DNA from: Clostridia bacterium
GTDB taxonomy: Bacteria; Bacillota; Clostridia; Oscillospirales; CAG-272
NCBI GenBank assembly: GCA_017411745.1
Contig: JAFQPM010000025.1
Coordinates: forward strand, 1,595 to 65,594
Reading direction: 5' to 3'
Length of the DNA stretch: 64,000 nucleotides
Below the pieces are notes generated by a model that was not told the origin of the DNA, made no database searches, and saw only the letters and a list, made by a program, of their open reading frames with translations. Shown here in pieces: positions 1,883 to 18,425 of this stretch. Made by a program: the position numbers and the translations under genes. Position 1 is the stretch's first letter, and every line of letters begins with the position of its first letter.

Positions 1883-3154
1883 ATGAACGCCAAACTTTTT
1901 GAATATATCGCCGCGTCGCCCACGGCGTACCACGCCTGTGCGCATACGTCGAAGATCCTGACCGATAACGGCTTCACAGAGCTTTTTGAAAGTGAAAAAT
2001 GGGCTCTTGAGGTCGGAAAGGGCTATTTTGTCAGACGAAACGGCTCGTCGGTGATCGCTTTTAAGATCCCCAAGGGCGATTTTGGCGGCTTTATGATCGC
2101 GGCATCGCACGCGGACAGCCCCTGCCTCAAGATCAAGGAAAATCCCGAGATTGCGGACAAGCATTACGTAAAACTTTCGGTTGAGACCTACGGCGGAATG
2201 ATCTATTCGACTTGGCTTGACCGTCCATTGTCGGTTGCGGGCAGAGTGACCGTTAAGACCGAAAAGGGAATTGAGATCAGGCTTGTTGATACCAATGCCC
2301 CGATCGCGCTTATTCCCAACGTGGCGATCCACATGAATAGGTCAGCCAACAGCGGAATGAATTATAACGCGGCGGTCGATCTTATCCCGCTTTACGAGGG
2401 CGGAGAAAAGAAGGACGCCTTCAAGGGTCTTATCGCAAAAGCGGCAGGAGTATCGGTCGAGGATATCGTCACCACCGATCTTTTCCTTTACAATCCCCAG
2501 AAGGGATACGAGTGGGGAGATTTCATCAGCGCGCCGAGGCTTGACGATCTTCAGTGCGCGTTCAGCTCTCTTGAAGCTTTTCTTGGAGCGAAGGATGGAA
2601 GCGGACTGCCCGTTTGCGCGATCTTCGACAACGAGGAGGTTGGAAGTCAGACCAAGCAGGGTGCGGCGTCGACCTTCCTTTACGACGTTCTTTCCCGTAT
2701 TGCAAAGGCTCTCGGGGAGGATTATTGCAGGCTGGTTGCCAATAGCTTTATGCTTTCTTGCGACAATGCTCACGCAAGTCACCCCAACCATCCCGAATAT
2801 TCCGACAGAAACCATACCGTTTGGATGAATGAGGGTGTTGTTATCAAGTACAATGCGAATCAGAAATATACGTCCGACGCGGTATCCGCGGCGATCTTCA
2901 AGCTGATTGCCGAAAAGGCAGGCGTACCTACCCAATACTACGCGAACCGTGCCGATATGGGCGGCGGCTCAACGCTTGGAAACATCGCGAACACGCAGGT
3001 TTCGCTCAATACGGTCGATATCGGTCTTGCTCAGCTTGCAATGCACTCGTCCTTTGAGACCGCAGGCAGCAAGGACACCGAATATATGGTCCGTGCGCTG
3101 ACCGAATTTTATTCATCGTCGCTCAAAGCGACCGCGGCAGGATACGAAATTTGA
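1883..3154 (+). CDS. M18-family aminopeptidase (aspartyl aminopeptidase-like)
   Basis: MNAKLFEYIAASPTAYHA ... AASHADSPCLKIK ... DNEEVGS ... LAMHS are M18-type motifs. GGAG lies 7 nt upstream of ATG 1883. Confidence 0.85.
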   Translation: MNAKLFEYIAASPTAYHACAHTSKILTDNGFTELFESEKWALEVGKGYFVRRNGSSVIAFKIPKGDFGGFMIAASHADSPCLKIKENPEIADKHYVKLSVETYGGMIYSTWLDRPLSVAGRVTVKTEKGIEIRLVDTNAPIALIPNVAIHMNRSANSGMNYNAAVDLIPLYEGGEKKDAFKGLIAKAAGVSVEDIVTTDLFLYNPQKGYEWGDFISAPRLDDLQCAFSSLEAFLGAKDGSGLPVCAIFDNEEVGSQTKQGAASTFLYDVLSRIAKALGEDYCRLVANSFMLSCDNAHASHPNHPEYSDRNHTVWMNEGVVIKYNANQKYTSDAVSAAIFKLIAEKAGVPTQYYANRADMGGGSTLGNIANTQVSLNTVDIGLAQLAMHSSFETAGSKDTEYMVRALTEFYSSSLKATAAGYEI

Positions 3155-3179
3155 TTTTGGATCAGAAAGGAATTTTACT

Positions 3180-5279
3180 ATGTTTAATCTTGCAAAGCCT
3201 ATTTTTGCCAAAGGAAAGAGCGAGGAGCTCAACGTTTATGCCGTATTTAAGACGACCGTTGATTCTCTCAAGGGCGTGGAGCTTAAGGTGACCGCCGCTT
3301 CATTTTATCAGGTCTACGTTAACGGCAAGTTCGTCGGATTTGGTCCTGCGCGCACCGCGAAGGGATATGCCAGAATGGATGTTTTGCCGCTTGAAAAGTA
3401 TGCTGTTGAGGGTAAAAACGAGATCGTGATCGGAGTTGCGGGCTATTATTGCCGTTCCTTCAACGGAATCTTTCAACCCTCCTTCCTCAGAGCAGAGGTT
3501 GTGCGGGGCGACGAGGTGGTTGCTTGCACGGGCAGAGATTTTGATTGTTATCTTCCCGCATCCCATATTCAGAAGACCGAAAGATATTCCGCACAGCGTC
3601 ATTTCTCGGAGGTTTGGGATTTTACCGACGGAAAATCGCTTACCGACGAATCCTATCGCACGGAAATAGAGATCTTGCCCGAGACACTTACCGTGCTCAA
3701 CAGAACCGCACCCTATCCTTATTATGAGGAAGTTGTATGTGACAAGGCGCTTGTTGCAGGTCACATTACGACTGATGAAACAGTAATTCCCAAAAAGGAA
3801 AACTACTCCTTCGCACTCGATGACTTCTGGCAGGGATTTGATTACGACGAGATAGAATACCATCCCTACGCGTGGGTGCAGACACAGGTACAGCATGCCG
3901 AAAAATTCGACGTAGAGCTTCCTTTGGCTCTTGGCGACGGCGAATATGCGATCTTTGATCTTGAAAAGGTTGAAACAGGATTTTTGAAGCTCTCGGCGAA
4001 GGCAACTGCTACTGCCGACGTTGTGATCGCGTTTTCGGAATACATACCCGATAAAACGTTTCAGTTTGCGAATATGCAGGCGCACAACGTCTGCGAGGTC
4101 AAGCTTGCTGAGGGAGATACGCTCGATTGGATGAGCAGAGAGCCCTATGTTTTGCGCTATGCTATCGTTGCGCTCAAGTCGGGCGCGATCACGTTGAACG
4201 GATTTGGAGTAAAGAGATTTGAGGGCGACGTTTCAGGAGTAGTTATCCCCGAGCTTGAAAATCCCGTGCTCCGTGATATCTACCGCGCGGCAGTCCGCAC
4301 CTACGCGCACAACGTTGTTGACGTTTATATGGACTGTCCCTCCAGAGAGAGAGCAGGTTGGCTCTGCGACAGCTACTTCACGGGCAAGACCGAGCATTTC
4401 TTGTTTGGCAAGACCGACGTTGAGGACGCTTATCTTGAAAATTACCGTCTTTACAAAAATGACGGAGAGCTTCCCGAGGGCGCGATCCCGATGTGCTTCC
4501 CCGCAGACGTAAAGGATACGGGTGAGTTTATCCCTCAGTGGACTATGTGGTATATTCTTGAGGTCGAGGAATATCTCCTCTACCGCAACAAGTCGGTTGA
4601 CAGGGAAGCCTTCAGAGACAGTATTTACGGTCTGCTCGGCTTCTACGCAAGACACGAAAACGAGGACGGTCTGCTTGAAAATCTGCCCTCATGGAACTTC
4701 GTTGAATGGAGCCGCGCAAATCATTGGGTATTTAACGTAAACTATCCCACGAACTTCCTTTACGCAAGAGTACTTGAGGCGGTTTATAATATTTTCGGAG
4801 ACGAGGATTGCCTCAAGAAGTGCGCCCACGTCAGAGGTAAGGCGGTCGAACAGTCCTTTGACGGCAAGCTCTTCTGCGACCACGCGGTAAGAGGAGAGGA
4901 CGGCAAGCTTGTCAGATGTGCCGATATATCCGAAATTTGCCAATATTACGCGATCCTTTTCGCAGGAATAGATACGGCAAAGCCCGAGTATGCATATATG
5001 ATGAACCTCATAGAAAACGTATTCGGCGCAGTCCGCAAGGAGCCGATGCCCGAGATCGAGGAGATCAACGCGTTTATCGGTGTTTATCTGCGCCTTGAAG
5101 CTATGCTTAAGCTTAAGAAATACGACCTCGTGCTTAACGATATCGAGACCTTCTTCGGCGATATGGAAAGGCTTACGGGTACGCTCTGGGAAAACAGATC
5201 GGTCGACGGAAGCCTAGACCACGGATTTGCATGCTACGCGCTGGTTGCTATGACCAAGGCGCTTGAGGCGAAGAAGTAA
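3180..5279 (+). CDS. Alpha-L-rhamnosidase-related (GH78-like) six-hairpin glycosidase
   Basis: The N-terminal region reads LKVTAASFYQVYVNGKFVGFGPAR (rhamnosidase N-domain pattern). MDCPSRERAGWLCDSYF resembles the DCPxRER(L)GW(T)GD catalytic-domain motif. Confidence 0.6.
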   Translation: MFNLAKPIFAKGKSEELNVYAVFKTTVDSLKGVELKVTAASFYQVYVNGKFVGFGPARTAKGYARMDVLPLEKYAVEGKNEIVIGVAGYYCRSFNGIFQPSFLRAEVVRGDEVVACTGRDFDCYLPASHIQKTERYSAQRHFSEVWDFTDGKSLTDESYRTEIEILPETLTVLNRTAPYPYYEEVVCDKALVAGHITTDETVIPKKENYSFALDDFWQGFDYDEIEYHPYAWVQTQVQHAEKFDVELPLALGDGEYAIFDLEKVETGFLKLSAKATATADVVIAFSEYIPDKTFQFANMQAHNVCEVKLAEGDTLDWMSREPYVLRYAIVALKSGAITLNGFGVKRFEGDVSGVVIPELENPVLRDIYRAAVRTYAHNVVDVYMDCPSRERAGWLCDSYFTGKTEHFLFGKTDVEDAYLENYRLYKNDGELPEGAIPMCFPADVKDTGEFIPQWTMWYILEVEEYLLYRNKSVDREAFRDSIYGLLGFYARHENEDGLLENLPSWNFVEWSRANHWVFNVNYPTNFLYARVLEAVYNIFGDEDCLKKCAHVRGKAVEQSFDGKLFCDHAVRGEDGKLVRCADISEICQYYAILFAGIDTAKPEYAYMMNLIENVFGAVRKEPMPEIEEINAFIGVYLRLEAMLKLKKYDLVLNDIETFFGDMERLTGTLWENRSVDGSLDHGFACYALVAMTKALEAKK

Positions 5280-5291
5280 GAAATAAAACAA

Positions 5292-5322
5292 AACAAGGCG
5301 TTCTCAAAACGCCTTGTTTTTC
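5292..5322. terminator. Bidirectional rho-independent terminator between convergent genes
   Basis: Stem AACAAGGCG (5292-5300) pairs with CGCCTTGTT (5310-5318). It is flanked by an A-run and a T-run. Confidence 0.75.
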
Positions 5323-5323
5323 T

Positions 5324-6286
5324 TTAGTTGATAGTGATCTTAATATCTCCCGTGTCGGTGTATATCTCGCATATACCGCCAGTAGTCGTGTGAGGAAGAT
5401 CAACGTCACCCGTGTCAGTATGGTATATGAATACTTTTTCCGAGAGCAGAGAGCCCTTAACGTCGCCAGTGTCGGTCATAATAAAGAGCTGGGCGGCGTC
5501 ACATCCGTCAAGCTTTACGTCACCCGTGCTTCTCTCAACGGAGAGCACTTCGCCTACGATCACGTTTTTCAGAATCATATTGCCCGTGCTGCCTCTTGAC
5601 GAGAGATTTTCGCAGATCACGTCTGTAAGAGTTGTTTTTCCCGTGCTTACCGCAATTTTGATCTCGCCGTCGCATTTTACGTGAGAAGCAACGATATTGC
5701 CCGTCGAGACAGAAATATCAAGCTCCTTTGCGGATATATCTTCAACGCAAACGTTACCCGTGCTCATCTTGATCCTTATATCACCCGATGCGGAGGCAAA
5801 ATTCTTTACGTCACCCGTATCCGTGGAGATGTCGATCTTTTCAAATTTGAGCTCCTTGGGTATTTCAACGTCACCCGTATCTGATTTCAGCAAAAGCTGA
5901 CCGTATTCGCCTTTCGGAATGTAAACGGTTATACTTGGTGAGTTAAAACCGATGCCTATATGCTCGTACCATTTTCTCGTGTCGACGACCTTTATTGTGA
6001 GCGTACCGTCCTTTACCGTGACCGAGTGCTTCATATTGGTTTGCTCGTAGCAGCTGACCGAGCAGCTTGAGTCTTCGGAAGGAACGAATTTAACGTCGGT
6101 AGTATCGACGTCGATCGAGATAGCAGAGAAGCCTTCGGTTATTTCATATTCATTCGTTACGTATTTATTTGTAGATAATTTTGTAAAATCCCATTTTAGC
6201 ATTGCCATCACGCCTCCAAAAACGACCGCTCCGATCAGTACGAGAGAAGCGGCTATAACTAGCCAGATCTTCATTGCCTTGCTCAT
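5324..6286 (-). CDS. DUF4097-family protein (membrane-anchored, repeated TGDV/TGNV beta units)
   Basis: An N-terminal TM segment is followed by repeated DTGDV / STGNV / STGDV units. Start set at ATG 6286 (AGGAG upstream), which overlaps the upstream stop as ATGA. Confidence 0.75.
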   Translation of the reverse strand: MSKAMKIWLVIAASLVLIGAVVFGGVMAMLKWDFTKLSTNKYVTNEYEITEGFSAISIDVDTTDVKFVPSEDSSCSVSCYEQTNMKHSVTVKDGTLTIKVVDTRKWYEHIGIGFNSPSITVYIPKGEYGQLLLKSDTGDVEIPKELKFEKIDISTDTGDVKNFASASGDIRIKMSTGNVCVEDISAKELDISVSTGNIVASHVKCDGEIKIAVSTGKTTLTDVICENLSSRGSTGNMILKNVIVGEVLSVERSTGDVKLDGCDAAQLFIMTDTGDVKGSLLSEKVFIYHTDTGDVDLPHTTTGGICEIYTDTGDIKITIN

Positions 6287-6885
6287 TCTGCTTTCTCCTT
6301 TCTTACAAAACATTTTTTAACACCCAAAGCAAGCTTTTTGGTAAGCAATATAATGCCTTTGGTTGCTTCGTGGCAGCCGAAAAACATAAAGATCGCAAGT
6401 CCCGCGCAGACAATAGCAGCACCGATCATTGCAACGCCTACAAGCGCGTTGTCGAATATAGCAAACACAATGCCGGCAAACGCAACTCCAAGGGCGGATG
6501 CGGCAAGTGCAGCGAAGATTGCCCAGACAGAAACGATCAGAGACCAGAGCACCACGTAGAGCGATAGGATCACCACGAATGCGGCAACAGCAAGAGAGAG
6601 CCATATCGGAGAACCGAGTATCAAAAGCACGATCTCCCAAGCCTTCATTCTTCTTTTCGGCTTGATCCTTTCCTTTGCGATCTTTGCAAAGGGAATATCC
6701 GATATTATCTGTGCCGAGATCTCGTCCACGGATCCAACGCCTGCAACGGCGTCCTCCTCGCTCAAACCGTCTTCTATACGGTCGTCGATCATTTCGCTGT
6801 AAAAGGCAAGACGTTCTTCAAGCTCTTGCTTCGGCAGTCCGACGAGATCTGCGCGAAGCTTGTCGAGAAATTCTTGTTTAAGCAT
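6283..6885 (-). CDS. DUF1700-family membrane protein (PadR-associated)
   Basis: MLKQEFLDKLRADLVGLPKQELEERLAFYSEMIDD is the typical DUF1700 N-terminus. The C-terminal half has TM helices. It lies between PadR and DUF4097, as in the common three-gene operon. Confidence 0.8.
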   Translation of the reverse strand: MLKQEFLDKLRADLVGLPKQELEERLAFYSEMIDDRIEDGLSEEDAVAGVGSVDEISAQIISDIPFAKIAKERIKPKRRMKAWEIVLLILGSPIWLSLAVAAFVVILSLYVVLWSLIVSVWAIFAALAASALGVAFAGIVFAIFDNALVGVAMIGAAIVCAGLAIFMFFGCHEATKGIILLTKKLALGVKKCFVRKEKAE

Positions 6886-7198
6886 TTTTCGAGTCCTCCT
6901 TGGTTATGAATTGGTAGATAGACATGACCTCGCGCCACTCGTTCTTGAATTCCTCGATGCGCTCAAGACCTGCCTTTGTAATATGATAATATTTTCGTAA
7001 TCTTCCGTTATGCTCTGCGGTTCGGACGGTCAGCATTTTCGCCGTTTCCAATCGTTTTAAGATCGTATATAGAGTGGATTCCGACATTTCCGTATATGGC
7101 TTCATATCTTTTATGATTTTGTAGCCGTACGAATCCTCGTCCTTGATAGCGGCTAATAAGCAAACGTCGAGTATTCCGCGTTTTAATTGAATATCCAT
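6878..7198 (-). CDS. PadR-family transcriptional regulator
   Basis: YGYKIIKDM ... STLYTILKRLE ... RKYYHITKAGLE form a winged-helix signature. Start moved to ATG 7198 (GGAG 6 nt upstream). The longer ORF reaching 7285 runs through a leader whose paralogue at the window end has a stop in that frame. Confidence 0.85.
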   Translation of the reverse strand: MDIQLKRGILDVCLLAAIKDEDSYGYKIIKDMKPYTEMSESTLYTILKRLETAKMLTVRTAEHNGRLRKYYHITKAGLERIEEFKNEWREVMSIYQFITKEDSKNA

Positions 7199-7332
7199 AT
7201 AAATCTCCATTCCGCCGCCGGCGACAGCACAAATAGCAATCGATGAATTTTGCTGAGAAGGCAAAATTCGCGCGTGAAAAAGCATGCGTAACCGTTAGAA
7301 AGAAGTAACTTTTACGCTATACCCCTCCTTAC
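7199..7332 (-). promoter_or_regulatory. Conserved ~130-nt 5' leader of the PadR operon (copy A)
   Basis: This is the transcribed region between the -10 box and ATG 7198. Most positions are identical to 63879-64000 on the + strand. It contains the palindrome AATTTTGC-N7-GCAAAATT and a block CTATTTGTGCTGTCG. Confidence 0.6.
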
Positions 7333-7339
7333 GCAATAC

Positions 7340-7368
7340 ATCATATCACGAAGTATTAATTTTGTCAA
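7340..7368 (-). promoter_or_regulatory. Promoter of the PadR-DUF1700-DUF4097 operon
   Basis: On the minus strand: TTGACA (7368-7363), 17-nt spacer, TATGAT (7345-7340). Confidence 0.65.
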
Positions 7369-7387
7369 TACGTTTTTGCAAATTTTT

Positions 7388-7427
7388 TGAAAAGAAAAAG
7401 CGCCAAGCGGCTTTTGCCGCTTGGCGC
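7388..7427 (-). terminator. Rho-independent terminator of the SDR gene
   Basis: A perfect 12-bp stem, GCGCCAAGCGGC (7400-7411) with GCCGCTTGGCGC (7416-7427). It is followed on the minus strand by a U-rich tract. Confidence 0.85.
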
Positions 7428-7442
7428 AATGCAATCTAAATA

Positions 7443-8207
7443 TTACAGAGTAGAGCCGAAATCGGTAACGATGGTCTGTCCTGTGATCGCTCTCGACTCG
7501 TCGGAAGCGAAGAAGAGAAGCATATTTGCCACGTCGTCGGGCATGCAGGGCTGAACCTTGAGGTCGTTGTGCTTCATCATCTGACCAAAGATGTTCATAT
7601 CCATGTTGGAGGGATTCATTCCCGCAACCATGGGGGTCACGATAGTGCCGGGACAGATCGCGTTGCAGCGCACGTTGGTGCCTGCAAAACGGAGCGCTGT
7701 GTGACGGGTAATACCGATAACAGCCGCCTTGGAGGCAACGTAAGCCGCGCCGCCGCAGCCCATAACGCCCGCTACCGAAGCTACGTTAACGATAGAGCCG
7801 TAGCCCGTTTTTGCCATCTCTGCGCTGATCTCGCGCATCATGCACATAGTGCCCTTGGTGTTGATGTCTATAACGCGGTTCATATCATCGTCGGTGAAGC
7901 TGTCTATCGCCTTGAGTCCCTCGTCAAGAACACCTGCGTTGTTGATAAGGATATCGACCTTGCCGAACGCTTCAAGAGTTGCATCAAGAACTCTCTTTGC
8001 GTCCTCGACCTTGGAGATATCACTGACAACGGGGAGTACCTCTCCGCCTGCCGCGCGGATCTTTTCGGCAACGTCAAGAAGGGGAGCTTCGCGGCGACCG
8101 GTAATAACTACCTTTGCGCCCTCTGCGGCAAATTTTACTGCGGTTGCCGCGCCAACGCCCGAGTTTCCACCTGTGATAATTGCTACTTTGTCTTGTAAAC
8201 GGTTCAT
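7443..8207 (-). CDS. Short-chain dehydrogenase/reductase (SDR) family oxidoreductase
   Basis: Motifs TGGNSGVG, NNAG and YVASKAA (YxxxK) are present. Start set at ATG 8207, with GGAGG 5 nt upstream. Confidence 0.9.
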   Translation of the reverse strand: MNRLQDKVAIITGGNSGVGAATAVKFAAEGAKVVITGRREAPLLDVAEKIRAAGGEVLPVVSDISKVEDAKRVLDATLEAFGKVDILINNAGVLDEGLKAIDSFTDDDMNRVIDINTKGTMCMMREISAEMAKTGYGSIVNVASVAGVMGCGGAAYVASKAAVIGITRHTALRFAGTNVRCNAICPGTIVTPMVAGMNPSNMDMNIFGQMMKHNDLKVQPCMPDDVANMLLFFASDESRAITGQTIVTDFGSTL

Positions 8208-8363
8208 ATTAGCCTCCATTCCGCCGCCTGTGGCGGCATAAATTTTAATTTGTATCTGGTTTTATTGTAACATAAAAGTCGGGAAAATACAAGAGGGGTG
8301 CAATAAATAACAAATATTTCTACTGCCAAGTTTATGAGTTTTTCTGACAAAATCTAATCAAAA

Positions 8364-8405
8364 TAGAAAAAAATCACCGCAAACGTAAAAACATTTGCGG
8401 TGATT
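8364..8405 (-). terminator. Terminator closing the AT-rich three-gene operon
   Basis: Stem AATCACCGCAAA (8372-8383) pairs with TTTGCGGTGATT (8394-8405). It is followed on the minus strand by a run of U (A-run on the + strand at about 8365-8373). Confidence 0.8.
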
Positions 8406-8471
8406 TGGCTTTGTATTATTTTTTGTTTTCTTTTACATTGTCAAAGAGATGTCAAAAGGATCGTAAGTGTT

Positions 8472-9635
8472 TTACTTGTTTCCTTTTGCCCTGTTATGAG
8501 TTTTGCAGAGCATTTGGCAGTTGCTTATATCCGTTGCACCGCCTTTACTCCAAGCGGTAACGTGGTCGGCATCCATTTCGGTAATCTTCCAAATGCGGTT
8601 TTTGTTGTTATCTGCTCCCAAAGCACACAAGGGGCAGTTAGAAAGATTCTGTTGCTTTGCCTGTGTGGTCTGCTGTGTGTAAACGGTCTTTTTAGTGGGC
8701 TCGTCAAACACTCTTATGTTTAGAAGTTTGTTATCGGCGCAACCACCGAGAATGTACTCATAAACGCCTTTCTTGTCTTTAACGTAAAAGTCGGAATACA
8801 ATTCTTTGAGCTTTGAAGATACTTCATCAGGAGCGTAAGCGTTTGTGTGGTACTGCTCGTAGAATTCGCCCCACGGCAGACCTCGCATTTCGCTTTCTAC
8901 ATCAATAAACACACTTGACACCCAATCTATAACGCTGGTGAAATAAGCCTTAAGCTCATTGATATTATCGTCATAGCGGTGTTTGCTCATGTAATCATCA
9001 ATATTGCCTTTGCTCACCCAAGACAACGCTGTACGCAAATAATCCTGTCTTATCACGCTACCAGATATGTATGCACTCCATTTCTGGATGTTGGCGTTCT
9101 GGCTGTTGGAAAATTCCTCTTTTGCTTTAGTGACAAAAGGGCCAGAGTGGATAGCGTTGGAAAGCTCCTGCTCGTTAAGGGGTATTCCTGCAATATTGAT
9201 TGTCTTAAACCACTCTTTGATTTCGCTTTCTGTACCCTCACAAATATAGATTGTTAGCTTGGTCTGCATTATTTTGTCCTGCAGATCTTTGGCAAGACCA
9301 GAGAAATATCTCGGTATGCCGTTGCTGTCATTGATGGCAAATTTGCCTGTTACGTATCGTCCAAAGCTGGTTATACGCTGTTGTCCGTCCAAAACCTCAT
9401 ATTTATCCTCTGCCACCTTTGTGAAGTAGATAAGTCCGAGAGGATAACCCTTGAGGATGGAGTCAATAACAGCCACATCACGCTTTCCGTCAGCGTAGAT
9501 ATAGTTACGCTGATATTCGGGCTGAATAGTCAGTTTGCCAGAAAGACCGAACAAACCTTTGCCCTCATATTCGTTATAGACAAAACCTTTACATATATCT
9601 GCAATGGTTATGTCGGTTACTAATGTGGTAATCAT
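8472..9635 (-). CDS. DUF262 (ParB-like NTPase, GmrSD N-domain type) fused to a C-terminal HNH nuclease
   Basis: DGQQRITS is the DUF262 DGQQR motif. The C-terminus reads CPLC ... [12 protein letters not shown] ... [10 protein letters not shown] (HNH). Start at ATG 9635 with AAGGAAGGAG upstream and a 4-nt ATGA overlap with the methyltransferase stop. Confidence 0.8.
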
Positions 9636-10825
9636 TTTATAGCTCCTTCCTTTACAAAATCTTCTGGGTGCAACTTTATCCATTCATCCGTATATCGTAT
9701 CAAAATGCGAGAAAATGGAATTTTGGCATTGCCATCACTATCGTAATAGCACAGCATCTTCATACCCTTTGTATAGTGTCCTTTTCCACCTTGTTGTCTA
9801 TATACATTCAAAAATTCTTCTGGCATTCTTTCTATGCCTACGACAATATTTTCGTCTTCTCTTTCATAACCCAACAACTCAAATTGTTCGCAACAGTAAG
9901 TGCCCATAAATGATTTGGGTACACCCATTATGCCTTTATAGTCTTTGGGAATAGCATCGGAATACGGAACATCCAAGGCATCAAATGTTATGTATTTGGC
10001 GTACGGTTTTCCGTTAACTTCTTTGTGTTTGCTGAATTTAATGTTATCTTCCATAGTCATCAAACTCATTGGCTGATGACGGCGACCGTGCTCAATATTA
10101 GTAAACCAAACAACGCCAGAAACACGTATCATGCCTTCTCTGTGGTCACTGGCAGTTGCATAATCTGTGTAATATTTGTTGATGAAATGAGCCGCACCGC
10201 CCTTGAAACCTCTGCCGAGCCACATTTTATTTTTCATAATCAAAGGAAAAACTTCTTTGTATGTAATCGCATTTTGATTTCCTATGATTAAAAATTGCTT
10301 ATCTGCTTCAACAATCCAAGACAAAAATTCTTTGAATAGGGAAAAAGGGGGATTGGTTATGATAATATCCGCTTCATCTCTTAACGCTTTTACTTCTTCG
10401 CTCCTAAAATCTCCATCACCCTCCAAATAGTGCCATTCCAAATCATCAATGTCTATCACACCAGATTTGTTGTTATCTCTGGTGAGAGTAAAGATTTTTC
10501 CATGTGTATTAGTCTTGCTTTCGTCGAATTGCGGAGACTCCATTTCAAAAATAGAAAGCTGGTAGCCCTCTTTGATATTTCTGCTCTCTATAGCGTAGCT
10601 GGTACTAATAATCTTTTTTAGTCCAAAATTTTCAAAATTTTGAGCAAAGAAGCGAGTAAAGTTGCTCCATTCAGGATCATCACATGGAAGCAAGATTGTC
10701 TTGCCCTTAAACACATCGGAGTTATACTCCAAGTAGGCATTGACTTCTCTCTGTATATCTTCGTATTGCGTATAAAACTCGTCGTTTTTTGCGTTCTTCG
10801 CTTCGGAAAGTTTTTTGTTTGCCAT
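9632..10825 (-). CDS. EcoRI-methylase-family N6-adenine DNA methyltransferase
   Basis: N-terminal [10 protein letters not shown] plus motif [17 protein letters not shown] lies 5-6 nt upstream of ATG 10825. Confidence 0.75.
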
Positions 10826-10844
10826 TTTTTACCTCAATTACTCA

Positions 10845-11636
10845 TCAAAGTTTAATCGTTTCAATCTGTTTCGAGTGCATAGTCAAAAAAATTTTTTTGT
10901 TTGTTTGGAGTTGCTTTATAAATAGCGTTGTTTTTTGCACAAACACCTTGCCAGCAATATTCTGCATAGTTATAAAAACGTCAATAGGAGCTCCCACTTC
11001 TTTTTTATCTATGTTGAAATATAACCATTCCGAAAACGGAGTGTGTTCTTCTTCCTCTACTGTTCCCCCGTTTTTTGATTTAGAATGCGTTATAATCATT
11101 TCACGAAGTCCAGCTATGCAAGTTAAATTGTAATTGATAGAATTTTTGCTATTATTATCTATCATTTCAAGTTGATTAAATATAACATTTTGTATCTCGT
11201 CTTTTATGTATAAAGCTTCAACTTCATTTTTGCTTAACTCAATTCGACTTAATAAAATGTTTTGAATTGGATATTTCCCCAAATTTCTTACATATAATTT
11301 TACTTTTAGTTTGTCGTTCGCATCATCGCACGCAATAACAGAGGATCTTTCTCTCAAGATATCTAAATATGGTATCATTTTTTCTTCTTCAATTTTTAGC
11401 ATCCTATCACTGACTTCATTCGCCTTGATAGAAATATTGACAGCGATACAACTTAAAAAAACTGAGGAAACAACAGAAATAGCAGTGCCACAGTAAGCTA
11501 ATATATCAGCTTTTTTTAAGGGTTCGCATTTAGTGATTCCATTAATAACAAATGGAGTAACGATTATACCTACAATCGCGAAAAAAAGTATAATGATTGA
11601 TAAAATTAATAAAAACGTACTTGATTTGTTTTTCAT
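10845..11636 (-). CDS. Hypothetical protein: two N-terminal TM helices plus a beta-rich C-terminal domain
   Basis: TM1 is FLLILSIIILFFAIVGIIVTPFV and TM2 is ILAYCGTAISVVSSVFLSCIAV, followed by about 190 soluble residues with no motif I recognise. It is the first gene of the operon, 19 nt upstream of the MTase start. Confidence 0.6.
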   Translation of the reverse strand: MKNKSSTFLLILSIIILFFAIVGIIVTPFVINGITKCEPLKKADILAYCGTAISVVSSVFLSCIAVNISIKANEVSDRMLKIEEEKMIPYLDILRERSSVIACDDANDKLKVKLYVRNLGKYPIQNILLSRIELSKNEVEALYIKDEIQNVIFNQLEMIDNNSKNSINYNLTCIAGLREMIITHSKSKNGGTVEEEEHTPFSEWLYFNIDKKEVGAPIDVFITMQNIAGKVFVQKTTLFIKQLQTNKKIFLTMHSKQIETIKL

Positions 11637-11674
11637 ATGTCAAAATCCTATCTGTTTTGGTGTCATTTGACATT

Positions 11675-11703
11675 ATTATACCATAGAATGATAAAATTTT
11701 CAA
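11675..11703 (-). promoter_or_regulatory. Promoter of the AT-rich three-gene operon
   Basis: On the minus strand: TTGAAA (11703-11698), 17-nt spacer, TATAAT (11680-11675) preceded by TGg (extended -10). Confidence 0.65.
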
Positions 11704-11777
11704 GAGAGAATAATCATTTAACCGATTTTGAGAAAGATATATTAGAAACTTGTTGTTGAAGCAGAAATCAAATATAC

Positions 11778-11810
11778 AAAAAGCGGCTTAAAACAATAGT
11801 TTCAAGCCAC
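11778..11810 (-). terminator. Probable terminator of the GMP synthase gene
   Basis: On the minus strand, stem GTGGCTT pairs with AAGCCGC (one G-U pair, 14-nt loop) and is followed by UUUUU. Confidence 0.5.
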
Positions 11811-11822
11811 TTAAAATCTATA

Positions 11823-12824
11823 TTATTCCCACTCAATGGTTCCCGTGGGCTTGGGAGTCAAATCGAAGAGAACGCGGTTAATTCCTTCCACCTCGTTGGT
11901 GATGCGTGCAACGATCTTATGAAGAACCTCGTAGGGTATCTCCTCAATGGTTGCAGTCATAGCGTCCTTGGTGTTGACGGCGCGGATTATCGCGGGCCAA
12001 CCCTCGTATCTGCTTTCGTCCTTTACGCCAACACTCTTGATGTCGGGAATAGCGATGAAATACTGCCAAACCTTTTCGGCAAGACCGCAGTTGTCGAATT
12101 CCTCGCGGAGAATCGCGTCTGCCTCGCGGAGCGCGTGGAGACGGTCGCGGGTGATCGCGCCAAGGCATCTTACTCCAAGACCGGGGCCGGGGAAGGGCTG
12201 ACGGTAAACCATAGCGTGAGGCAGGCCAAGCGCCTCGCCAACAACTCTTACCTCGTCCTTAAAGAGAAGCTTTACGGGCTCAACGAGCTCAAACTGAAGG
12301 TCGTCGGGAAGTCCGCCAACGTTGTGGTGGGACTTGACTGCCTTTTTGCCCTCTGCCTGCTTGATGCTCTCGAGAATGTCGGGGTAGATAGTGCCCTGAG
12401 CCAAAAATTCAACGCCCTCAAGCTTTCTTGCTTCGTCGGCAAAGACCTCGATGAACTCCTTTCCGATGATCTTTCTCTTGCTTTCGGGGTCGCTGACGCC
12501 TGCAAGAAGATCAAGGAAACGGTCGGTTGCGTCTACGTATATAAGGTTTGCGTCGAGCTGATTTCTGAAGACCTCGATAACGTTTTCGGACTCATTCTTA
12601 CGCATAAGACCGTGATTGACGTGAACGCATACGAGCTGCTTGCCGATAGCTTTGATAAGGAGTGCTGCCACTACCGAGGAGTCCACACCGCCCGAGAGAG
12701 CCAAAAGAACCTTTTTGTCGCCAACCTGAGCGCGAACCTCTTTGATCTGCTCTTCGATGAAAGCGTGCGCGAGCTCGGGAGTTGTTATACGTGCCATTGT
12801 TTCAGGACGAATAGAATTCTGCAT
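11823..12824 (-). CDS. guaA: GMP synthase, ATP-pyrophosphatase plus dimerisation domains only (no glutamine amidotransferase domain)
   Basis: SGGVDSSV P-loop, KSHHNVGGLP, and the C-terminal PKPTGTIEWE typical of GuaA. Start at ATG 12824 (AAAGGA upstream). Only about 25 residues precede the P-loop. Confidence 0.85.
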   Translation of the reverse strand: MQNSIRPETMARITTPELAHAFIEEQIKEVRAQVGDKKVLLALSGGVDSSVVAALLIKAIGKQLVCVHVNHGLMRKNESENVIEVFRNQLDANLIYVDATDRFLDLLAGVSDPESKRKIIGKEFIEVFADEARKLEGVEFLAQGTIYPDILESIKQAEGKKAVKSHHNVGGLPDDLQFELVEPVKLLFKDEVRVVGEALGLPHAMVYRQPFPGPGLGVRCLGAITRDRLHALREADAILREEFDNCGLAEKVWQYFIAIPDIKSVGVKDESRYEGWPAIIRAVNTKDAMTATIEEIPYEVLHKIVARITNEVEGINRVLFDLTPKPTGTIEWE

Positions 12825-12984
12825 ATGTTTTCCTTTCTTGTTTTGGCAGGGGATACCCTGCAATTCGCTAAAAACTTAAGGATAGATAATCATTGATCGA
12901 TCACGAGTCTTAAGAGAGCTCATCACCCTTTTAAAACCCAAACCGTTTTTATCTTTTGCTTTCCTTGGGGAAGTTCTTTGGAGA

Positions 12985-14566: not shown

Positions 14567-16172
14567 AGATGCTATTAGCTATATTTTTAAAGTAATCGGT
14601 GTCTTCGGACGCAGATGGAGAGAGCAGGGATTCAAAAAGCTCTGATCCTATGTATTCTCTTGCTTCTGCGATCCACTTTTCCTCGTCCGCGGTCTCCATG
14701 TCGCGTATGGCGTAACAGATCTTTTTATAATCTCCGGGAGTGATGAGAATGTGTCGCGTATCGGCATAACCCTTTTCGTAGCGAATGCCGAGGTGCAGAC
14801 CGCTTTCGTCGTCAAGCGGCATGTCGGCATAACGGTTTATTATGAACCAATCAATGTTTTCGCATTTGCGGAGCTTGAGGTATGCCAGAACGAAAGCGTA
14901 CGCGCCCTTGTTTTCAGTCTCGGGATCGTCACCGTTCGTGTGGAATCCCTGCTCGTCGAAGACTACGCGGCGAGGCTTGCCCCGATAGGTAAGCTCGGGA
15001 AGCTCGACCAACTCTTGCCATACCTCGAGATTTTTCATCGTTATTCTTGTCGAATCGAACGAGAACGTGGCGGTCTTGTCGTGGTAAAAGTCGGGGCGGG
15101 AGAGATCCTCGGGATAGGGGTGTGCCGAGATGCCCCAATCAAAATCTCCGTCTCGTCTGCAATAAGCCGCGAGATAAGCAAGGCAGTCGCGCGAGGGATA
15201 GTGGCGCATGCGGTCGGGCTCGAGAATATGGTCGGCAAAATTGTGGTCAAAGGAGACGTCAACTCGGAAGCTTGCGTTGTATTTTCGTGCGATCAGATGC
15301 GCCAACCGCAGCTGCTCGGTGTATTCCTCCATATAGTCGGCACAAGACATTCTGCCGCAGTTGTGCCAGGTGTTCTGTGCGTTTATCTCGTTGCCGATAT
15401 CCATTACAGTGGAGCAGAACAGAGGACTTTTCGGGTCAGCGTAGCGCGCGCAGAGAAAGTCAATGCAAGCACAGTACATATTTAGTCCTGCTTCGTCTCG
15501 AAGATTGAACGCGCTCATCTGCTCGTTAAATCCTGTTGGCTCGTAGTCGGGGTGGCCGATGACCTTGACAAGCCCATCATCAGAGCCGCAAAGGCGGTAG
15601 CTGAATCGGTTGATAAGTCTTATCAGGCAAGGGATCTTGCGCTTTACGCAGGGAAGCATGAGCTCATCGTAAAGCTGCATAAATTCGCGGTCAAAATAGT
15701 AGGTCTTGCCGTTCCATTCGTGTGCGACGTCGTCTTCCTTGGGGGAGACCGTCTGTATCCATGCGGTGTTGAATTCATTCATCATACAGCCAAATCCAAG
15801 CAGGTCCATGTCCTCCTCGGTGGATGTCACCCACGTGCCCACGGGCTTTTTGACCGTGAATTCAAAGTTGTCCTTTGAAAAATCGCCGGAAAGGTCGGTG
15901 ACGTAGCGCACGCCGTCGAGTCTTTCACCGTCGACTCCGACCTCAAAGCGACAGATCGAGAGATCGTAACCGTCTATATATCTTGGTAAAACAAATTCGT
16001 CGCCTTGTGCCGCGGAGCTTTGGAAAACGAGCCTGCCGGGAGTTTTGTTATCCCTTGAGTTTCCGTGGACCAGCGGCACGAAGGCTCTTGCGACTGCCTT
16101 TGCGTTGACAGAAAGCCCGGGGATCTGTATTTTTATTTCATTTGCCGATGCAATAATGTTTGATATTTTCAT
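14565..16172 (-). CDS. Putative clan GH-A-like TIM-barrel glycoside hydrolase (possibly DUF5722 family)
   Basis: MDIGNEINAQNTW is an Asn-Glu acid/base-like motif, and the length and pattern suit a (beta/alpha)8 hydrolase. The family call is tentative. Confidence 0.4.
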   Translation of the reverse strand: MKISNIIASANEIKIQIPGLSVNAKAVARAFVPLVHGNSRDNKTPGRLVFQSSAAQGDEFVLPRYIDGYDLSICRFEVGVDGERLDGVRYVTDLSGDFSKDNFEFTVKKPVGTWVTSTEEDMDLLGFGCMMNEFNTAWIQTVSPKEDDVAHEWNGKTYYFDREFMQLYDELMLPCVKRKIPCLIRLINRFSYRLCGSDDGLVKVIGHPDYEPTGFNEQMSAFNLRDEAGLNMYCACIDFLCARYADPKSPLFCSTVMDIGNEINAQNTWHNCGRMSCADYMEEYTEQLRLAHLIARKYNASFRVDVSFDHNFADHILEPDRMRHYPSRDCLAYLAAYCRRDGDFDWGISAHPYPEDLSRPDFYHDKTATFSFDSTRITMKNLEVWQELVELPELTYRGKPRRVVFDEQGFHTNGDDPETENKGAYAFVLAYLKLRKCENIDWFIINRYADMPLDDESGLHLGIRYEKGYADTRHILITPGDYKKICYAIRDMETADEEKWIAEAREYIGSELFESLLSPSASEDTDYFKNIANSI

Positions 16173-16202
16173 AATGTGACCTTTTTGAATTTTTGGTTTT
16201 TA

Positions 16203-17063
16203 TTAATAGATGCGACTAACGTTAATTTTTATTTTTGCTCCTTCGCCCGCGAGCTTAACGATTACTTCCTTGTTGGAAACATCTTTCAGAGTAATAGATC
16301 GAGATTGATTAACGTCAACCGAGCAATAGTATTCTCCGTCGATAATAATTACTATTTCGGCATTTCCTGATTCCACGGAGCTGTCGATGTTAAGAGTAAG
16401 GGTATTTCCCGATATTTTGGTTGCTTGAAGAATTACAATACCGTGTAATTTTCCGAACGACCTACTGATATGATCGTAATCATAATCCCTAAGCCTCGTT
16501 CCGACGATGTTTGTGTGGTATCCCGAATACCTTTGCGATGACATATAGCTTCTGTAGTTGTTACCTTTGTTCAAAATGTCGTCACGCGTTATTTCAGTCA
16601 GGGCATAATTATCAGGTCCGTTTGTGTCAACAAAGTCGGATTCCGATGCCAATGAAATGATAACGGCGAGCGCAATCAAAATTGTAACAACTATGGGAAT
16701 GGTAATACACAAGGCAATAACTAAACCGTTTTTGGATCTTTTGTATCCGCAGCTTTCAAGATAGTTATGCAAGATTTGCCTTACCTTTTCCGAGTCAAAC
16801 TCCTCTTTTGACCCATCCGAGCAGTATGAAACGGCTTTTTTTCGAACTCCGTATTGTCTGCGGTATCCGTCAAAGTCATAAGTTTTTTCAGTATAGGTTT
16901 TATCATCCTTTAACTGTGCGACACAGCGAAACGTTGACTCTCTCAAGTGTTTGCCGCGATATTTTGCTTCGAGTATTATTTTATCGCCTTCAACAGTCAC
17001 AGTATAATTTTTATCACTACTGTTCAATGCAAGCGCATACTGTAAAACTTCTTGTTTTGTCAT
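16203..17063 (-). CDS. Hypothetical single-pass membrane protein
   Basis: Start at ATG 17063, with the extended SD AGAAAGGCGGTG upstream. The central TM is LVIALCITIPIVVTILIALAVIISLA. The gene is AT-rich and has no recognisable domain. Confidence 0.55.
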   Translation of the reverse strand: MTKQEVLQYALALNSSDKNYTVTVEGDKIILEAKYRGKHLRESTFRCVAQLKDDKTYTEKTYDFDGYRRQYGVRKKAVSYCSDGSKEEFDSEKVRQILHNYLESCGYKRSKNGLVIALCITIPIVVTILIALAVIISLASESDFVDTNGPDNYALTEITRDDILNKGNNYRSYMSSQRYSGYHTNIVGTRLRDYDYDHISRSFGKLHGIVILQATKISGNTLTLNIDSSVESGNAEIVIIIDGEYYCSVDVNQSRSITLKDVSNKEVIVKLAGEGAKIKINVSRIY

Positions 17064-17262
17064 GATGGCACCGCCTTTCTGTTTCATAGTTTAATTGTAT
17101 CACAAATTTATTAATATTTCAACCCGTTTCTTCGTATCTCTCGAAATGTCAAAGCCGGCTTTACGGAACCCAAAAGGCGAGGAAAGAAGGACTTAGAGCC
17201 TTAGCACAAAAATTGCAAGCAATTTTTGGCGGAGGCGTTCTGCATAAACCATACTACACTTG

Positions 17263-17305
17263 CCAAAACAAAAGGGATGGTCAACGACCATCCCTTTTGT
17301 TTTGG
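17263..17305. terminator. Very strong bidirectional hairpin terminator
   Basis: A perfect 20-bp stem, CCAAAACAAAAGGGATGGTC with GACCATCCCTTTTGTTTTGG, and a 3-nt loop. Confidence 0.8.
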
Positions 17306-17482
17306 GACTGTTTTACCAATTTGTAGTTTCGCATCCAAATCACGCCGTAGCGCAAGTTTTTTCAAAAACGATCCGTGGTTTTTGGTCGGTGGATAGACTT
17401 ATCCCTTGGCGATGATGGGAGTTGCACTTGACCGCTATCTTCCGGGGTGCTGCTCCATGCTTGCAAACGAAGCTATGTATAA

Positions 17483-17764
17483 CTATTCTTTTTTTGAAAA
17501 CTTATTGAAGTGTTTTTCGAGTTTTCTCTCTATGAGAGGAGTATATTTTTTATCCAAAGCCTTGAATACAAAATGTAAGATGATTTCCAAAATGATGAAT
17601 AATGCAAAATATCCTCCAATTGCAATCGCGTAATATTGCCATGAAAACGAATTTAGCAGACCTATAACGAGAAATAATGCCGGAATAGCTAAAATTTCAA
17701 TAATATCCCAAATCACCATACCGACATAAAGAATATTAGCGATAAAACCTAATATCTTTTTCAT
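17483..17764 (-). CDS. Small (93-aa) three-TM membrane protein
   Basis: Start at ATG 17764 (AAGGAGG upstream), which overlaps the upstream stop as ATGA. The sequence is hydrophobic: ILGFIANILYVGMVIWDIIEILAIPALFLVIGLL ... YYAIAIGGYFALFIILEIILHFVF. Confidence 0.6.
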   Translation of the reverse strand: MKKILGFIANILYVGMVIWDIIEILAIPALFLVIGLLNSFSWQYYAIAIGGYFALFIILEIILHFVFKALDKKYTPLIERKLEKHFNKFSKKE

Positions 17765-18108
17765 TTTGCGCCCTCCTTTGCTGTGTTGATGGAGGCGATC
17801 AACATTCTGCGGATCGTTCCGCATTGATTATACAAATCTTTTGCAATCTCTCGGTCAAGTAATTCTGATTTTACAAATAATTTAAGCCAATATTCCGTTT
17901 CATAGCACTCTTTCAATGCAATTTGAAACTTGGCAACAAAGTCAGCTTTACTATGAGCATAATTCGCTTCGTGAATATTGGCACCTATCGAAGTAGAGGA
18001 ACGTTCCAACTGATTGACAAGAGAATAGTGACCTTTTATGCCGTCACACATTTTGATAACTTTAACCGCAAAGTCTGTGGATAGGTCACGAAGCTTTGAA
18101 TCTGCCAT
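17761..18108 (-). CDS. Four-helix-bundle protein (23S rRNA intervening-sequence protein / Avd-like family)
   Basis: LVNQLERSSTSIGANIHEA ... DFVAKFQIALKECYETEYWLKL is the typical PF05635-type signature. The extended SD is AGAAAGGCGGTG. Confidence 0.8.
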   Translation of the reverse strand: MADSKLRDLSTDFAVKVIKMCDGIKGHYSLVNQLERSSTSIGANIHEANYAHSKADFVAKFQIALKECYETEYWLKLFVKSELLDREIAKDLYNQCGTIRRMLIASINTAKEGAK

Positions 18109-18160
18109 AATAACACCGCCTTTCTGCCGTTATTATATCATAAAATCGCTAGCTTTTCAA

Positions 18161-18425
18161 GTGAAATATTCGGCTTGCGCCGAATGTGAAATAGTTTTTT
18201 GCGTACTCGGAGTGGTACTCTGAGTTTTTGATCTTTAGTGAAATATTTTGCCTTGCGGCAAAATGTGAAATAATTTCCTGGCGGAAATTGTGAAATATCT
18301 CCCGCCGCCTACGGCTTTGGTCGATGTGAAATAAAATTCGCCTCCTCACGCGCGAAGCGCATTTCACATGCGAAGCATATTTCACGCTCCGAAGGAGTAT
18401 TTCACTCGCCGCAGGCGAATTTCAC
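18161..18425. repeat. Divergent array of mini-hairpins each linked to GTGAAAT/ATTTCAC
   Basis: GTGAAAT occurs at 18161, 18186, 18238, 18265, 18290 and 18326. ATTTCAC occurs at 18361, 18379, 18399 and 18419. Between the copies are short stems of differing sequence that all pair: ATTCGGC/GCCGAAT, ATTTTGCC/GGCAAAAT, AATTTCC/GGAAATT, GCGC/GCGC, ATGC/GCAT, CTCC/GGAG and TCGCC/GGCGA. Confidence 0.85.

Follow-up and report, generated by a model that had tools for sequence, protein, structure and literature searches.

An EcoRI-family adenine methyltransferase coupled to a DUF262-HNH nuclease in a Clostridia bacterium: one copy of a widespread restriction-modification cassette with a variable methylase and a constant nuclease

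Among the described restriction-modification (R-M) systems, the one to which the locus examined here is closest is BanLI of Bifidobacterium animalis subsp. lactis. Its methylase, M.BanLI, a protein of 41.7 kDa that its authors aligned with M.EcoRI, makes RTC(m6A)GG, the N6-methyladenine (m6A) being placed on one strand only, and the gene behind it encodes a presumed R subunit of 43.5 kDa (PMC3990576). The cloned BanLI R-M pair brings the plating of P1vir down to about 0.1, and pre-methylation by BanLI raises transformation 1.8-fold (PMC3990576); restriction by BanLI is weak but real. In strain CECT8145, the gene that REBASE gives as the Type II restriction endonuclease (REase) for RTCAGG is annotated as a "DUF262 domain-containing protein" (PMC13091528). 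Here, we describe a two-gene locus in a stretch of 64,000 nucleotides (nt) from a Clostridia bacterium (order Oscillospirales, CAG-272; assembly GCA_017411745.1, contig JAFQPM010000025.1, positions 1,595 to 65,594 of the forward strand), hereafter the window, to which all coordinates refer unless another sequence is named. Its methylase (M) and nuclease (R) open reading frames (ORFs) fill 8472-10825, both on the minus strand, with M upstream and R downstream, and they are an intact copy of a very common and barely studied R-M cassette, not a new system. That this locus is an R-M pair of the BanLI kind is very probable. Comparison of its relatives reveals an almost invariant nuclease next to a methylase with exchangeable segments, a pattern on which we build a proposal, held with confidence only slightly above even when taken as a whole, that joins a BanLI-type cassette to a mechanism in which the methylase would guide the nuclease.

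The downstream gene (8472..9635, minus strand) encodes the nuclease P0001, of 387 aa and 44.0 kDa, in which a DUF262 domain of ParB/Srx fold (PF03235 GmrSD_N, E 3e-19) is followed by a helical middle domain and by a C-terminal HNH domain (PF01844, E 3.3e-8). A DUF262 domain with an HNH at the C-terminus had also been read in the preliminary description of the locus, which had been made from the letters of the DNA alone. In PADLOC, residues 18-387 match positions 12-372 of the 372 positions of the REase_II model PDLC03418 (E 7.5e-92). The motifs were placed at verified coordinates on the minus strand: PEYQR at 9507-9521; DGQQR of the DUF262 domain (aa 83-87), invariant in 66 homologues, at 9375-9389; and the HNH finger (aa 334-381), which starts with CPLC and runs CxxC ... 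DH ... N ... CxxH N, at 8493-8636. In two nuclease alignments, of 9 and of 66 homologues, the residues Q42, R43, D83-G-Q-Q-R87, D357, H358, N372 and N381 are invariant, as are the zinc ligands C334, C337 and C377; the fourth ligand, H380, is kept by all of the 66 close homologues, but two distant homologues on plasmids have another residue there. P0001 therefore has the D-H...N...N set and the zinc ligands of an HNH (His-Me finger) nuclease, and the degenerate HNH or DGQQR residues that, according to the preliminary description, would speak against its finding are not seen in these alignments. The catalytic motifs are intact in the nuclease and in the methylase alike.

The AlphaFold2 (AF2) model of P0001 has a mean predicted local distance difference test score (pLDDT) of 84.7, which exceeds 90 in the helical middle domain of about 150 residues. 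Its nearest folds in the PDB are BrxU (7p9k, the top match), ParB-CDP/CTPgammaS, Noc, PadC, DndB-like proteins, SspE and sulfiredoxin, a coherent set of matches that are all weak, and a search of the PDB by sequence returned marginal matches only (BrxU, E 0.04-0.3). In GmrSD, the QR and DGQQR residues have been assigned to the binding and hydrolysis of nucleoside triphosphates (PMC4619093). Since the weak fold matches include ParB and BrxU and the same residues are invariant here, a nucleotide-gated HNH domain is plausible in P0001 by analogy.

The upstream gene (9632..10825, minus strand) encodes the methylase P0002, of 397 aa and 46.3 kDa. The protein is an EcoRI-family N6-adenine DNA methyltransferase by its match to PF13651 EcoRI_methylase (E 2.1e-115) and is assigned to MTase_II by PADLOC (E 2.4e-78); DEFYT lies at 10769-10783 and NPPF at 10343-10354, both at verified coordinates on the minus strand, in agreement with the N6-adenine methyltransferase that had been proposed from these two motifs. 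A sequence search of the PDB with P0002 gave no match, and a fold search with its AF2 model (pLDDT 85.6, predicted template modelling score 0.82) matched only generic Rossmann methyltransferases and M.BseCI. The C-terminal half thus lacks a solved homologue and cannot be mapped onto a known target-recognition domain. No phase-variable repeats were found in the methylase gene; homopolymers of at least 7 nt within the window operon are confined to the first gene, described below, and to the terminator. One relative (L018, 2344-3990) carries a methylase of 549 aa with two stretches matching PF13651, paired with the same type of nuclease, which may be a duplicated or extended form of the enzyme.

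The two genes are joined at a junction that reads GGAGCTATAAAATGATTACCA, where the nuclease ATG (9635) overlaps the methylase TGA as ATGA, as the preliminary description had noted, and a GGAGG-like Shine-Dalgarno sequence lies 8 nt upstream of this ATG. A longer nuclease ORF of 403 aa, from an ATG at 9683, was considered and rejected, because every homologue begins at the ATG that overlaps the methylase stop codon.

This arrangement is not peculiar to the window. Coupling was counted over 89 sequences, that is, the loci of 88 relatives and the window, and the methylase is directly upstream of the nuclease in 78 of them. As for the other 11, in eight the sequence stops within 250 nt upstream of R, one (L034) was found by tblastn to have a methylase fragment cut by the end of the contig, and only two (L042 and L087) are truly devoid of an adjacent methylase. 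Measured from the stop codon of M to the start codon of R, the spacing is -4 nt in 30 of 76 loci and no more than 20 nt in 66 of them. The coupling of M and R is conserved and not accidental, and the layout of an R-M system, which the preliminary description had recognized in the overlap of the two genes, holds across the family.

The family itself is very large. A protein database search with P0001 returned at least 8000 clusters at 90% identity, the best being 79-89% identical to it, and the named relatives among the matches listed are called only "DUF262 domain-containing protein"; clustering at 50% reduces the inter-phylum clade to essentially one full-length representative, with 465 representatives at E ≤1e-30. 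In a scan of one genome per species, at least 415 species carry the nuclease, including members of Bacillota, Bacteroidota, Chloroflexota, Patescibacteria (the candidate phyla radiation, CPR), Melainabacteria, Proteobacteria, Spirochaetes, Kiritimatiellia and Actinomycetota, and one metagenome-assembled genome (MAG) of Pacearchaeota. The loci compared were the best 80 of these at least 415 species matches; the M-R pair is kept in nearly all of them, and Bifidobacterium is not among these 80. Furthermore, tblastn with the nuclease found 111 plasmids and one Flavobacterium phage, and in all eight of the annotated plasmid or phage records (Enterococcus, Moraxella, the Flavobacterium phage, Rhodococcus, Gordonia, Macrococcoides, Mammaliicoccus and Microbacterium, which span Bacillota, Actinomycetota, Pseudomonadota and a phage) a gene annotated as an "adenine-specific methyltransferase EcoRI family protein" stands directly upstream on the same strand. 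The pair ranks with the most widely distributed R-M systems. The preliminary description had regarded a DUF262 nuclease with a methyltransferase as an unusual logic; this view, or that of a new logic, is not supported, as the DUF262-HNH family has an EcoRI-family methylase as its regular partner and is already filed as a Type II REase by PADLOC and as Type II by REBASE. Its suggestion that the methylase marks self DNA, so that the nuclease spares it, amounts to ordinary R-M logic rather than to anything exceptional.

In a few relatives, M and R are separated by an additional gene of about 280-320 aa (L020, 3156-4004; L051, 3136-3999; L056, 1293-2249; L044, 3107-3976). By eye, the N-termini encoded in L020 and L051 (...WYF.V.DV..VLT.S.DP.AYWRKLK...) resemble Bro-N/ORF6N-type proteins and the gene in L056 looks RhuM-like; genes of these kinds are frequently embedded in operons of Type I R-M and BREX systems.

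The two partners differ sharply in how they vary. In 68 complete M-R pairs, the nuclease alignment is essentially gapless and evenly conserved, at 61-95% identity, whereas in the methylase three hypervariable blocks, aa 81-120, aa 201-240 and aa 321-end, break up a conserved core. The second block, var2 (aa 201-240; 10106..10225, minus strand), has a column conservation of 0.36-0.46, against about 0.8 in the core, and falls into 14 discrete types; in the AF2 model it forms a hairpin with a disordered or low-confidence tip at aa 221-229. The third, var3 with the tail (aa 321-397; 9635..9865, minus strand), has a conservation of 0.04-0.46 with many gaps, and 33 types. The two reassort independently, giving 57 combinations among the 68 systems; the window and L031, for example, are 90% alike in var2 and 12% in var3. 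Gamma-type adenine methylases carry the target-recognition domain C-terminal to NPPF. By their position C-terminal to this motif and by their behaviour as cassettes, var2 and var3 are therefore putative target-recognition elements.

The nuclease does not follow these changes. Across the 68 pairs, nuclease identity correlates with that of the methylase core (r 0.55), but neither with var2 (r 0.04) nor with var3 (r 0.05). The window and L010 illustrate this, being 94% identical in the nuclease and only 15% and 11% in var2 and var3; the 25 nuclease differences between them are spread along the protein, and at 11 of these positions L009, whose methylase is of the window's type, differs as well. 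A per-column test tied no nuclease column to cassette type beyond permutation: the maximum adjusted mutual information (AMI) was 0.15 for var2 (95th percentile of the null, 0.15) and 0.32 for var3 (0.29), and the positive control gave an AMI of 1.0. If the cassettes set the target and the nuclease never co-varies with them, then the nuclease could not read the same sequences alone and would depend on the methylase for its recruitment or licensing, in the manner of Type I and Type III systems. A Microbacterium plasmid (L008; NZ_CP012699.1, 1116-4167) offers a natural case of R without M: an IS256 transposase has cut the methylase to 188 aa, with loss of the NPPF half, and the nuclease gene that overlaps the truncated methylase is full-length and keeps all invariant residues.

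On these grounds we propose the following mechanism. The methylase would mark a short site, which in BanLI is asymmetric and methylated on one strand, and incoming DNA without the mark would be restricted by the pair. The target would be set by the two independently reassorting cassettes in the C-terminal half of the methylase and would not be read by the nuclease, which, being nearly invariant, may act as a generic effector recruited or licensed by the methylase at unmethylated sites. The ParB/Srx-type DGQQR nucleotide pocket would then probably be the switch that gates the HNH finger, and the overall logic would be like that of Type III or Type I systems without a helicase. As regards its central element, namely that the methylase supplies specificity to the nuclease, the comparison of sequences leaves us close to evenly divided, with at most a slight lean in its favor. 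The idea of a methylase-guided generic ParB-fold/HNH effector was not found in the literature searched.

In the window, the pair forms the distal part of a three-gene operon on the minus strand. A promoter-like site (11675..11703), TTGAAA-17 nt-TATAAT with a TG element, assigned solely by its match to the consensus (11 of 12 positions), comes right after the terminator-like hairpin (11812-11781) of a guaA-like gene. It is followed by the gene of a 263-aa, 29.8-kDa protein, P0003 (10845..11636), by a gap of 19 nt, by the methylase and nuclease genes and, at the end of the operon, by a terminator-like hairpin with a 16-bp stem and a T-run (8371..8406). The operon has a GC content of 37% (30% in the P0003 gene, 38% in M and 43% in R), against 48-50% in the flanks, which encode on one side a GMP-synthase C-terminal protein and an F420-ligase-like protein and on the other an SDR protein and a PadR/HAAS/DUF4097 set. 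Because of this low GC and of its self-contained organization from promoter to terminator, the 3.3-kb operon is a small horizontally acquired island, with no mobility genes of its own, between the guaA-like and SDR genes. The stretch was found only in DNA assemblies of animal-gut metagenomes. Elsewhere in the window, a second low-GC patch (39%) at 16000-18200, minus strand, encodes ORFs of 294 aa and 113 aa without Pfam match and a 115-aa "23S rRNA-intervening sequence protein" (PF05635), and may be another small acquired island.

P0003 has two N-terminal hydrophobic segments, hence its designation here as the two-transmembrane (2-TM) protein, and matches no family in Pfam, NCBIfam or PHROG; PADLOC gives only a weak match to PycTM (E 6e-4). 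Its family comprises 19 clusters from gut Clostridia, and its gene is always the first of a short operon whose downstream cargo varies. This cargo is M plus DUF262-HNH in the window, L009, L091/92 and L100/101; in L093-95 a 42%-identical homologue is directly upstream of a different GmrSD_N protein of 593 aa, next to Type I hsdR/hsdM; and in L089/96/97, L098 and L099 a small unrelated protein takes this place (173, 196 or 218 aa). In L091 (2800-8181, compared with 8472-12863 in the window), a contig of another gut metagenome, the trio, with a 62%-identical TM gene, is just downstream of a GMP synthase gene. The TM-M-R island, which adjoins this gene in both cases, may thus have landed repeatedly on the 3' side of guaA. 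L100 and L101 share a block (3153-8795) made of a 196-aa ORF, the TM gene, M, R, a 185-aa ORF and a nucleotidyltransferase/HepT toxin-antitoxin pair; because their left flanks differ, the cassette also travels inside a larger mobile defence island.

The sequence comparisons have also to be considered in the light of a classical Type II (IIP/IIS) system, in which the DUF262-HNH protein would read and cut its own sequence unless it is methylated and the methylase would only protect. The filing of such pairs by PADLOC (REase_II) and by REBASE (via PMC13091528) agrees with it, as does the composition of the locus, which consists of M followed by R and lacks both a helicase and a specificity subunit, and the well-predicted helical middle domain of the nuclease could be the DNA reader. 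However, a nuclease that remains gapless and 61-95% identical across phyla, beside 57 combinations of methylase cassettes and without covariation by identity or in single columns, argues, if indirectly, against this view, which would require that all nucleases of the clade be isoschizomers and that the methylase cassettes have another purpose. Moreover, BanLI methylates its asymmetric site on one strand only, and a Type II enzyme acting by itself would then cut the unmethylated daughter duplex after replication; intact nuclease genes also persist beside the truncated methylase of L008 or, in L042 and L087, without one. These three loci, like the one-strand methylation of BanLI, fit a nuclease that depends on its methylase. 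We consider the classical Type II reading unlikely, though deserving of serious attention. The methylase-guided mechanism has in turn several points against it: the target role of var2 and var3 is deduced from position and cassette behaviour, on an AF2 model in which the C-terminal half of the methylase has no solved homologue; the fold matches of P0001 are all weak (E ≥0.01); the nucleases of the conserved clade could all be isoschizomers of one fixed site, with the methylase variability serving something else; the link of the window pair to BanLI comes from two papers and not from alignment with R.BanLI; and no biochemical study of the architecture of an EcoRI-family M with a DUF262-HNH R was found in the literature beyond BanLI, whose restriction is itself weak.

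Three further explanations were weighed. The 2-TM protein could be a functional partner in a three-gene system, for example as a membrane effector or an abortive-infection arm. Its gene does share the promoter-terminator unit, at 19 nt from the methylase, the same trio recurs in L009, L091/92 and L100/101, a homologue precedes another DUF262 protein, and the weak PycTM match points in the same direction. Nevertheless, the TM gene is present in only one (L009) of the 88 fetched loci of relatives, it elsewhere precedes unrelated small proteins, and it diverges faster than its neighbors (63% identity between the window and L009, against 96% for M and 95% for R) in a family of only 19 clusters, so that we hold a three-gene system to be improbable. 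A decaying or purely selfish cassette, maintained by addiction only and with no defence function in the host, would agree with the weak restriction of BanLI (efficiency of plating, EOP, 0.1), with the high mobility of the cassettes and with a GC content unlike that of the host. Against it are the integrity of both reading frames and of all catalytic residues, the operon's own promoter-like and terminator-like sites and the strong purifying selection on the nuclease across phyla, which argues for a maintained activity; it is accordingly very improbable. Lastly, DUF262/DGQQR proteins are otherwise known from GmrSD, BrxU and SspE, and P0001 could be a modification-dependent, GmrSD-like Type IV nuclease beside an unrelated orphan methylase. 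This reading was rejected on the conserved coupling to the methylase, with its ATGA overlap kept across phyla, and on the absence of DUF1524, the C-terminus being a PF01844 HNH; in addition, BanLI methylation improves transformation and the BanLI R-M clone restricts unmodified P1vir. Hardly any credence is left to it.

Taken alone, the window locus is a further instance of an already catalogued cassette and matters little; the family matters more. If the methylase does guide the nuclease, the family would embody a third design for targeted restriction, next to those of Type I and Type III, in which a ParB-like nucleotide switch replaces the helicase; it would offer a natural cassette system for the reprogramming of specificity, and those predictions of methylome or host-linking motifs that treat such pairs as ordinary Type II systems would need revision. 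More tentatively, and as a suggestion that we think has somewhat more chance of being wrong than right, BanLI-type pairs may have been misfiled as Type II and may form a separate and widespread helicase-free R-M class. In such a class, a monomeric EcoRI-family methylase would give all of the specificity, possibly with a one-strand mark, the nearly invariant ParB-switch/HNH effector would be loaded or licensed by it at unmethylated sites and might slide as ParB and Type III enzymes do, and the 2-TM protein might add a membrane arm.

Compared with the known systems that contain DUF262 proteins, P0001 shares with the Type IV enzymes GmrSD and BrxU and with SspE an N-terminal domain of ParB/Srx fold with QR and DGQQR and a C-terminal His-Me finger with D-H-N-N. 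Those proteins differ in size (580-770 aa) and in having DUF1524 in place of the PF01844 zinc-finger HNH, and the sequence similarity of P0001 to BrxU/GmrSD-type enzymes is marginal (E 0.04-0.3). GmrSD and BrxU are modification-dependent and have no methylase partner, and SspE, which senses phosphorothioate modification, works with the SspABCD phosphorothioate-modification genes, unlike P0001, the partner of which is a methylase (78 of 89 sequences). A search for PF07510 (DUF1524) in P0001 gave no match, its C-terminus being a PF01844 HNH with a CxxC...CxxH zinc site. Because it lacks this feature, the window nuclease is not a member of the GmrSD family; of the GmrSD-like nuclease of the preliminary description, the N-terminal DUF262 domain (PF03235, with DGQQR) stands and the C-terminal half does not. 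The DUF262 domain also matches the PADLOC model of NsnA, the ParB-DUF262 protein of Menshen (residues 33-176, E 2.9e-29). Partners of the NsnB and NsnC kinds are absent, however, and NsnA has no HNH finger and carries N-terminal DNA-binding domains (PMC12065111).

Among the R-M systems, Type III (e.g., EcoP15I Mod/Res) resembles the cassette in its mod-then-res order, in the putative exchangeable target segments of the methylase and in a constant nuclease subunit, here probably nucleotide-dependent; one-strand methylation of an asymmetric site, another point of likeness, has been shown for BanLI only. However, the locus lacks an SF2 (superfamily 2) helicase/ATPase Res, its methylase belongs with M.EcoRI and not in the Type III Mod family, and an M-R complex is postulated here. 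Profile searches found a helicase domain neither in P0001 nor in the other products of the operon, and for this reason the window locus is not a Type III system. With the EcoRI R-M system it has in common the Pfam family of the methylase (PF13651, E 2e-115); in contrast, its nuclease is unrelated to R.EcoRI, a PD-(D/E)XK enzyme, and methylases of the window type have hypervariable cassettes. The closest likeness is to BanLI (REBASE Type II/IIS), drawn from the annotation of R, the sizes and the gene order given in PMC3990576 and PMC13091528 rather than from an alignment: in both systems, an EcoRI-like m6A methylase of about 42-46 kDa is directly followed by an R gene encoding about 43.5-44 kDa, within an island of lower GC. 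The two differ in what precedes the pair, an extra 2-TM gene leading the operon in the window and an integrase gene in BanLI, and the cassettes of the window methylase need not match those of M.BanLI, which correspond to RTCAGG.

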